IMG/VR virus record: IMGVR_UViG_3300026257_000002
Location: 1 to 64,000 of that record
Direction: 5' to 3' (one strand)
Source of the DNA: a virus
Length of the DNA stretch: 64,000 nt
The notes under the pieces are model-generated. The model worked only from the letters and a program-made list of their open reading frames with translations. It ran no database searches and was not told the origin of the DNA. Shown here piece after piece: positions 12,918 to 13,764 of the stretch. A program made the translations under genes and the position numbers. Positions within the stretch are counted from its first letter, which is position 1. The number at the start of each line of letters is the position of its first letter.

Positions 12918-12942
12918 TTATTTAGTAAGAGGTTATGGACAA

Positions 12943-13014
12943 CTCCCAAGGCAGGATTTGAACCTGCGACCGAGTGATTAACAGTCACCTGCTCTGCCAC
13001 TGAGCTACTTGGGA
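12943..13014 (-). tRNA. trnN: tRNA-Asn (GTT)
   Basis: Cloverleaf: TCCCAAG/CTTGGGA acceptor stem, GGTGA-CTGTTAA-TCACT anticodon arm, GCAGG-TTCAAAT-CCTGC T arm; no encoded CCA. Confidence 0.96.
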
Positions 13015-13282
13015 ATAAAGGGGGGCTTCTCACCCCCCCTGAACTACTTGGGTAACAAGGCTAGTTTAACCCCGATCTCCCATTCAGGCAGTCACGAGTT
13101 CGCGAGTGCGGGAGAATGCTACGATGTTATTCGCAGCAGGTGTAGATGTTTTAGCATCTGTTGTTTGCTTATCCAAGCAGGTTTCAGTCACAATCGTAAT
13201 AACCCGTCTAAACCGTGGCACCCCCATGAATGGAGGTGAGGAGAGTCGAACTCCTGTCCGAGCCTATTCGTAAAGTCACCTA
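13015..13282 (-). ncRNA. ssrA: Circularly permuted (two-piece) tmRNA, marine cyanobacterial type; outer boundaries approximate
   Basis: Acceptor piece GGAC-AGGAG-TTCGACT-CTCCT-CACCTCC-A (ends 13231); 5-nt spacer TTCAT; coding piece starts GGGGGTG-CC-ACGGTTTAGACGGG (13225); G3.U70 pair; tag ORF 13134..13084 = ANNIVAFSRTRELVTA*; TCTCCC/GGGAGA helix; terminal GGGGGG/CCCCCC hairpin. Confidence 0.9.
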
Positions 13283-13300
13283 TTCCTCTTTGAAGAGGAA

Positions 13301-13372
13301 TGCCATCAGGAGGATTTGAACCACCGACCTTGGCTTTACAAAAGCCCTGCACTACCACTGTGCTATGATGGC
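13301..13372 (-). tRNA. trnT: tRNA-Thr (TGT)
   Basis: GCCATCA/TGATGGC acceptor stem; anticodon loop TTTGTAA; T loop TTCAAAT (T stem has one T.T mismatch); no CCA. Confidence 0.93.
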
Positions 13373-13374
13373 GA

Positions 13375-13448
13375 CGATTCAGGTTGGACTCGAACCAACG
13401 ACCGACTGCTTAGAAGGCAGTTGCTCTACTCCACTGAGCTACTGAACC
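13375..13448 (-). tRNA. trnR: tRNA-Arg (TCT)
   Basis: GGTTCAG/CTGAATC acceptor stem; CTGC-CTTCTAA-GCAG anticodon arm; TTCGAGT T loop; no CCA. Confidence 0.96.
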
Positions 13449-13452
13449 AAAG

Positions 13453-13534
13453 TGGGCAAGGTTGGATTTGAACCAACGTAGGCAGAGCCAAGGGATTTAC
13501 AGTCCCTCTCCTTTAACCACTCGGACACTTACCC
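13453..13534 (-). tRNA. trnY: tRNA-Tyr (GTA)
   Basis: GGGTAAG/CTTGCCC acceptor stem; AGGGA-CTGTAAA-TCCCT anticodon arm; long variable arm; no CCA. Confidence 0.96.
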
Positions 13535-13551: not shown

Positions 13552-13764
13552 TCATGTGTAGTATGCTTGAAAGTATTTAACAATACCATCAGAACGAACA
13601 TTACCCTGAGACACCCAATCATGGCAACACTGAGTGATGCTGTTCATACTATACATTGGTTCTTTATTTTTGTCAAGCACAGATCCAAAACGAGTGAGGA
13701 GAAGACTGTAAACTTTTTGCCTCAACTCCATACGGTCATCGCTATAACGCCAATCATCAATCAT
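13552..13764 (-). CDS. Hypothetical protein (70 aa)
   Basis: ORF track; contains the promoter of the RNA operon. Confidence 0.6.
   Translation of the reverse strand: MIDDWRYSDDRMELRQKVYSLLLTRFGSVLDKNKEPMYSMNSITQCCHDWVSQGNVRSDGIVKYFQAYYT
13648..13676 (-). promoter_or_regulatory. sigma70-type promoter, probably driving the tRNA/tmRNA operon
   Basis: TTGACA-17 nt-TATAGT, ~110 nt upstream of tRNA-Tyr. Confidence 0.7.

Follow-up and report, generated by a model that had tools for sequence, protein, structure and literature searches.

A permuted, two-piece tmRNA gene in the tRNA cluster of an uncultured marine cyanomyovirus

What is encoded by the 280 nt that separate tRNA-Thr from tRNA-Asn on the minus strand of a T4-like marine cyanomyovirus, and how did the virus come by it? 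The virus is uncultured: the window, by which we mean the whole 64,000-nt stretch of DNA analyzed here, is taken from a 132-kb IMG/VR virus record that is metagenome derived and 71% complete. The 20 kb around the element match Syn1, S-RIM44, S-PM2, and other phages at about 75 to 78% over nrdA/B, primase, and similar genes; among the products of nearby ORFs are a tail lysozyme and a 2OG-Fe(II) oxygenase, and cyanomyovirus genes lie on both sides of the element. Read along the minus strand, the cluster begins with tRNA-Tyr (GTA; 13452-13534; 59.6 bits on the Rfam tRNA model), continues with tRNA-Arg (TCT; 13373-13449; 68.9 bits) and with tRNA-Thr (TGT; 13301-13372), whose 3' end abuts the leader of the element, and resumes directly downstream of it with tRNA-Asn (GTT; 12942-13015; 71.8 bits), all four being ARAGORN calls.

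The element is a phage-borne permuted (two-piece) tmRNA gene, an identity confirmed by the agreement of two detectors and by covarying base pairs. The ARAGORN call, at 12993-13322 (minus strand), is a permuted tmRNA whose tag has 23 residues, and the Rfam model RF01851 (cyano_tmRNA; gathering score of 70) matches 13021-13309 on the same strand with 132 bits (E value of 1.3e-35) over model positions 1 to 288, i.e., its full length; the general permuted model, RF04321, gives 68.9 bits against a gathering score of 47. An earlier note, made from the letters of the sequence, had read the locus as a permuted two-piece tmRNA inside a tRNA operon and had named tmRNA covariance models and ARAGORN as the way to check it; both were positive, and together with the covariation they bear that reading out. 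The T arm, 3' acceptor strand, discriminator A, 5-nt spacer, and 5' acceptor strand with G3.U70 that it listed are all found in the sequence where it placed them, as are the P2 pairing, the tag frame, the UCUCCC/GGGAGA helix, and the terminal hairpin. Its boundary at 13282 has to be moved: because the leader hairpin at 13300-13283 is part of the model and belongs to the gene, the tmRNA gene starts at 13300, directly after tRNA-Thr.

In the permuted order, the T arm and the 3' strand of the acceptor stem come first on the minus strand (13255-13231), followed by the spacer (13230-13226) and by the sequence from 13225 onward. The acceptor piece (13231-13300, by model alignment) comprises the leader hairpin, the 5' strand of P2, the T arm (13255-13239, by sequence and model alignment), the 3' acceptor strand (13238-13232), and the discriminator A at 13231, and CCA is not encoded in it. 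After the spacer, which reads UUCAU in the sequence, comes the coding piece (13021-13225), defined by model alignment, covariation counts, and folding and made up of the 5' acceptor strand, a D-loop analogue, the 3' strand of P2, a PK1 stem, the tag frame, a downstream pseudoknot, and a terminal hairpin. The alanine identity features are present: the 5' acceptor strand (13225-13219) forms a 7-bp acceptor stem with the 3' strand, G3 (13223) pairs with U70 (13234), and the discriminator is A73 (13231).

Within the coding piece, the first stem of PK1 (13179-13175 with 13170-13166) was placed by model alignment; the second stem of PK1, which cannot be made out in the subclade of the window, seems to have been lost there. 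An AGAUG/CAUCU hairpin at 13144-13159 is specific to the phages and missing from the hosts in an alignment of 44 phage and 8 host sequences, and a second phage-type hairpin, predicted in the minimum free energy (MFE) fold at 13117-13138, contains the Ala-Ala-Asn-Asn-Ile-Val-Ala codons. The UCUCCC/GGGAGA helix (13115-13110 with 13081-13076, spanning 13076-13115), found by covariation and also in the MFE fold, encloses the stop codon and a tag-end hairpin (13105-13101 with 13096-13092). It is followed by the downstream pseudoknot (13042-13074), with stems of 13074-13069 paired with 13061-13056 and 13066-13062 paired with 13046-13042, and by a terminal G+C hairpin (13020-13039; model positions 273 to 288), after which come UUUAU and tRNA-Asn. 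This last hairpin is likely an inherited terminator or 3'-end stem; a terminator scan of the region made no call on it.

This structure is under selection. The 280-nt fold has a free energy of -100.2 kcal/mol (z = -4.05), and the MFE fold independently recovers the same helices. For the covariation count, the 44 phage and 8 host sequences were aligned against a structure consisting of the model plus the helix contributed by the earlier note. Pair cells are paired 88% of the time in these 52 sequences, compared with 45 to 54% when partners are slid, both sides have changed in a compensatory manner in 37 of 74 pairs, and the covariation score, 0.29, exceeds the 0.07 to 0.10 of the slid controls. 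Pairing of the acceptor stem and T arm is complete (100%), with compensatory changes, and G3.U70 is invariant (52/52). P2 (helices 2 and 3) is 89 to 93% paired, with 9 of its 17 pairs changing on both sides, and in the window it has two U.U mismatches that are seen in its subclade. In the downstream pseudoknot, both-side changes occur in all five pairs of the second stem and in two of the six pairs of the first. The helices around the tag behave likewise: AGAUG/CAUCU is replaced by AUCUG/CAGAU and by GACG/CGUC in other contigs; UCUCCC/GGGAGA is replaced elsewhere in the clade by UUGCCC/GGGCAA, UCUCAC/GUGAGA, and UCUCUC/GAGAGA; and in the hairpin at 13117-13138, the third bases of two codons covary as a perfect swap in 75 of 76 unique sequences.

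The same evidence bears on whether the stretch might instead be a small protein gene. The earlier note had stated that no ORF or tRNA explains the gap, and while the tmRNA identity stands, the absence of ORFs does not, as exemplified by a 47-aa ORF at 13084-13227 (minus strand) that has an ATG start, reaches from the spacer to the stop codon of the tag, and shares its reading frame. CDSs over this region are annotated as "hypothetical protein" in the GenBank records of Sf-FS3, S-SSM7, and S-CAM3, as would be expected if the ORF had a real product, but we give that reading almost no credence: the annotated extents differ between relatives, the variation tracks RNA pairing and not one long reading frame, and the stretch matches tmRNA models end to end. 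The annotated CDSs over the tmRNA in these three records are almost certainly spurious.

The closest known counterpart of this tmRNA gene is the two-piece tmRNA of the marine and freshwater picocyanobacteria (Synechococcus, Prochlorococcus, and Cyanobium; RF01851), with which it shares the order of acceptor piece, spacer, and coding piece, along with G3.U70, A73, the T loop, P2, the downstream pseudoknot, the terminal hairpin, and a tag core of Ala-Asn-Asn-Ile-Val-x-Phe-Ser-Arg. It differs from the host genes in lying within a phage tRNA cluster, in its score on RF01851 (132 bits, against 274 to 326 bits for host tmRNAs, which were recovered from 86 of 101 sampled picocyanobacterial genomes), and in having, upstream of the host-type resume codon, an additional block of 21 nt that forms a hairpin. 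Spacers in the aligned hosts range from about 5 to about 48 nt, so that the 5 nt of the window stand at the short end of the host range; 5 nt is also the commonest length in the phage clade.

Three picocyanobacterial genomes contain a second, weaker tmRNA-like match (G019:C8:15487-15781, G012:C11:308429-308665, and G042:C1:926930-927148, at 168, 94, and 66 bits, respectively), one of which lies 3 kb away from the main gene. At the 168- and 94-bit copies, ARAGORN made no call; for the 66-bit copy, it gave only an implausible tag. These matches may be remnants of island integration.

A pattern scan recovered the phage-type tag core in 110 IMG/VR contigs (an earlier scan of viral contigs with a T-arm pattern had returned mostly unrelated one-piece phage tmRNAs, and the tag-core pattern was used in its place), and ARAGORN called a permuted tmRNA in 106 related loci; the host-type tag core had no matches in viral contigs. 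On the host-built RF01851, phage copies score 109 to 143 bits. A maximum-likelihood tree, which covers eight hosts and the phage set gathered by the tag-core pattern, splits phage from picocyanobacterial tmRNAs with 100/100 support, and when it is rooted on the hosts, phage copies with a host-like tag end are basal. This topology fits a single capture from a host, followed by evolution inside phages. The nearest relatives of the window's gene are uncultured contigs, at 97% identity, and the clade extends to five groups of cultured or single-cell phages and is present in 16 GenBank phage records. None of these 16 records annotates the gene as a tmRNA, and most have a "hypothetical protein" over the stretch. 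Since 402 records match a 20-kb stretch of the window and only these 16 GenBank phage records carry the tmRNA, the gene is therefore dispensable for the group.

A host-like gene in a record that is metagenome derived and 71% complete could in principle be decaying host DNA, the attachment-site fragment left behind when a phage integrates into the tmRNA gene of its host, or an assembly chimera of host and phage, and there is precedent, in that integration commonly takes place at tmRNA genes, pieces of which can be carried by phages (PMC9004378). We regard such an origin as very improbable and as largely refuted. Both tmRNA pieces are full length, the same gene occupies matching positions in the tRNA clusters of cultured phage genomes, and the phage copies form a clade apart from all sampled hosts that evolves by compensatory changes. 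The attachment-site version specifically is contradicted by the full-length gene and by the lack of an integrase among the seven neighboring ORFs scanned. A working two-piece tmRNA gene, captured once by an ancestral cyanomyovirus from a picocyanobacterial host and evolving since within phages, is very probably the right account.

The tag of this phage lineage departs from those of its hosts. The reading frame called by ARAGORN (13084-13155) encodes 23 residues and a stop codon (13086-13084); it opens with an Ala codon and ends in Val-Thr-Ala, compared with Val-Ala-Ala in the hosts. All 34 host tags called by ARAGORN are one near-invariant tag, and every one of them ends in Val-Ala-Ala where the window ends in Thr-Ala. 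The core, Ala-Asn-Asn-Ile-Val-x-Phe-Ser-Arg, is retained in the phage tags; its position x, Arg or Ser in hosts, is Ala, and the sequences on both sides of the core differ from those of host tags. The C-terminal half is rewritten in the phage clade, whose tag differs from every host tag checked. Among 102 ARAGORN calls lying wholly inside their locus, there are 43 distinct tags; Thr-Ala closes the tag in 52 of these 102 loci and Ala-Ala in 37.

Further variation in tag length occurs within the clade. Among S-SSM7 and L019-type loci (alignment columns 273 to 296), one subclade has a 24-nt in-frame insertion with its own hairpin, giving a tag of 31 residues, and another has a different insertion of 18 to 24 nt at the same position of the tag. 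In the host tmRNAs (loci L155 to L188, e.g., L155:1496-1810 and L158:1491-1800), the resume codon and the codon after it pair with the Val-Arg or Val-Ser codons, and the base at the third position of the resume codon (G or U) covaries with the base that opens the Arg or Ser codon (C or A), as judged by eye and uncounted. RNA pairing may thus underlie the Arg/Ser difference that separates Synechococcus-type from Prochlorococcus-type tags.

Where translation would resume on the phage RNA depends on how the 21-nt block is read. The host-equivalent resume codon is GCG at 13134-13132, from which the tag would have 16 residues, and GCU at 13155-13153, at the stem/loop junction of the phage-specific hairpin (13144-13159), would add seven more. 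Across 76 unique sequences of the clade, the 21-nt block upstream of the tag core amounts to exactly seven in-frame codons, with no stop in frame 0, and GCU is preceded by an invariant A at position -4 and a pyrimidine at -5 (76/76); the other two candidate Ala codons do not have this context. In the Escherichia coli tmRNA, positions -4 and -5 matter for the choice of frame. Because of the fixed number of stop-free codons and the conserved upstream context, we lean, without great confidence, toward GCU at 13155-13153 as the resume codon. The candidate codon sits in a covarying hairpin, and part of the conservation of the region might be due to nothing more than RNA structure. Some of the seven-codon extensions read like a copy of the start of the tag, which suggests that the block arose by tandem duplication of it.

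Could the phage lineage have re-engineered its tag, the 21-nt block moving the resume point upstream and adding seven residues, and the replacement of the C-terminal half altering the fate of tagged products? The C-terminal half of the tag is the end recognized by proteases in model bacteria. We put this idea forward tentatively and consider it rather doubtful as it stands; if it is true, ribosomes would be freed and the stalled products would escape host proteases or go to a different one.

The tag also bears on the possibility that the phage RNA is mainly a decoy, which soaks up host SmpB or blocks host trans-translation and does not tag. No match to SmpB was found in the whole 132-kb record, which extends the earlier note's remark that none is in the window, and none was found in four complete relatives with the same tmRNA gene (Sf-FS3, S-CAM3, S-CAM1, and S-SSM7). 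The finding fits dependence of the phage tmRNA on host SmpB, and an RNA from a phage without SmpB must compete with the host tmRNA for that protein, as a decoy would. A decoy has been argued for in the case of the molecule of mycobacteriophage DS6A, which is little more than a tRNA-like domain, and a phage form of this kind is reported to inhibit tmRNA (PMC4131195, PMC11915505). A pure decoy, however, needs none of the coding piece, which is retained whole here; the tag frame remains open across the 43 distinct tags of the 102 loci, with a fixed length before the core and a stop at the end, and the helices around the tag covary. We therefore hold a decoy to be improbable, if less so than the other alternatives, and favor the working tmRNA.

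How would such an RNA be made? The sole strong promoter match of the region in a consensus scan is a sigma-70-like candidate (TTGACA-17 nt-TATAGT; 13648-13676, minus strand; 11 of 12 consensus positions, a pattern match only) about 114 nt upstream of the tRNA cluster. This candidate (13676-13648) falls inside a 70-aa ORF (13552-13764, minus strand) that has no Pfam match; either that ORF is not real or the promoter of the tRNA cluster lies inside a gene. The tmRNA would be cotranscribed with the phage tRNAs and its precursor cut by host tRNA-processing enzymes. tRNA-Thr abuts the 5' side of the tmRNA in about 50 of the 106 related loci, and the acceptor piece would begin where the 3' end of tRNA-Thr is processed. 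In 23 of the 106 loci, a complete tRNA (tRNA-Tyr in 15 and tRNA-Asn in 8; e.g., L019:2238-2665 and L192:1234-1645) lies in the spacer between the two tmRNA pieces; freeing this nested tRNA needs the same cuts that part the pieces, which indirectly supports processing of the tmRNA together with the phage tRNAs, as we infer for the window.

Sequencing runs bear on expression to a limited degree. Of the sampled words of the stretch, 50% or more were present in each of seven DNA runs and 4 to 8% in six RNA runs. RNA-library contigs of close relatives, which come from two studies, extend from tRNA-Thr across the acceptor piece and into the spacer, and these contigs are short and shallow and possibly represent DNA carry-over; those from four runs show neither ends, strand, nor processing.

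The remaining steps can be set out for a working tmRNA. RNase P would cleave before G1 at 13225, the 5-nt spacer would be trimmed after A73, CCA would be added, and the acceptor stem and P2 would hold the two pieces together. Host alanyl-tRNA synthetase would recognize G3.U70 and A73 and charge the RNA, which SmpB and EF-Tu of the host would bring to ribosomes stalled on broken mRNAs; translation would resume there within the tag frame, GCU 13155-13153 being the most likely codon, and add the phage-type tag. Host RNase E increases in the course of infection by cyanophages (PMC10989914), and the phage would probably benefit by keeping ribosomes free, and perhaps by recycling stalled products, while host mRNA decays and host transcription falls. 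Transcription, processing, charging, tagging, and benefit, including the earlier note's idea that the RNA helps the phage to withstand RNA degradation, are all inferred from the gene and its relatives.

Permuted tmRNAs of cyanophages are already known as a kind, and the window is a further example, from a phage-only lineage. The earlier note could not say whether the gene had been cataloged; relatives had in fact been listed, as Table S1 of Buchholz et al. 2022, who ran ARAGORN on 18,146 phage genomes and recovered 53 two-piece forms, mostly marine, names S-CAM1, S-CAM3, S-SSM7, S-SSM6a, S-CRM01, S-CBWM1, and AG-345-P14 (PMC9004378). Sf-FS3 does not appear in that table (PMC9004378). The tmRNAs of the cultured cyanomyoviruses Sf-FS3, S-SSM7/S-SSM6a, S-CAM1, and S-CAM3 and that of Marine virus AG-345-P14 belong to the same clade as the window and share its range of scores on RF01851 (109 to 143 bits), its seven-codon extension, and its position beside tRNA genes; Sf-FS3 is 86% identical to the window over the coding piece, and the tag end varies between members. 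As far as the cyanophage tmRNA literature was accessible, we found no analysis beyond the 2022 supplementary table and no description of the altered tag of this clade, i.e., its seven extra codons and rewritten C-terminal half.

Other phage tmRNAs resemble that of the window more distantly. Methylophilales phage Melnitz and Pelagibacter phages HTVC008M and Mosig are likewise lytic marine myophages with a permuted ssrA and no reported SmpB, and ribosome rescue and amino acid recycling early in infection were proposed for them (PMC9004378). Their tmRNAs are of the alphaproteobacterial type, however, some with a glutamine riboswitch, whereas neither this riboswitch nor any other Rfam family reaches its gathering threshold beside the tmRNA gene in the window. 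Mycobacteriophages of the Bxz1 group and Bacillus phage G also have a tmRNA without a phage SmpB, but theirs is a one-piece, unpermuted gene, with unrelated hosts and tags; Hudson et al. 2014 gave mycobacteriophages and phage G as the only phages with tmRNA (PMC4131195). The 2025 tmRNA database holds 79 phage sequences, and the accompanying paper describes one tRNA in a spacer, a tRNA-Ala in a nominally archaeal MAG, which it calls unique.

For phage annotation, the consequence is that public records need correcting, as the tmRNA is never annotated in the records checked and spurious protein calls lie over most copies. The phage clade also offers a natural set of tag variants built on one conserved RNA scaffold, usable for questions of tag proteolysis and resume-codon choice, and the remodeled tag and the tRNAs nested in relatives are the features that merit experimental attention. 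That abundant ocean viruses carry a ribosome-rescue RNA of their own suggests that stalled ribosomes limit phage production in picocyanobacteria.
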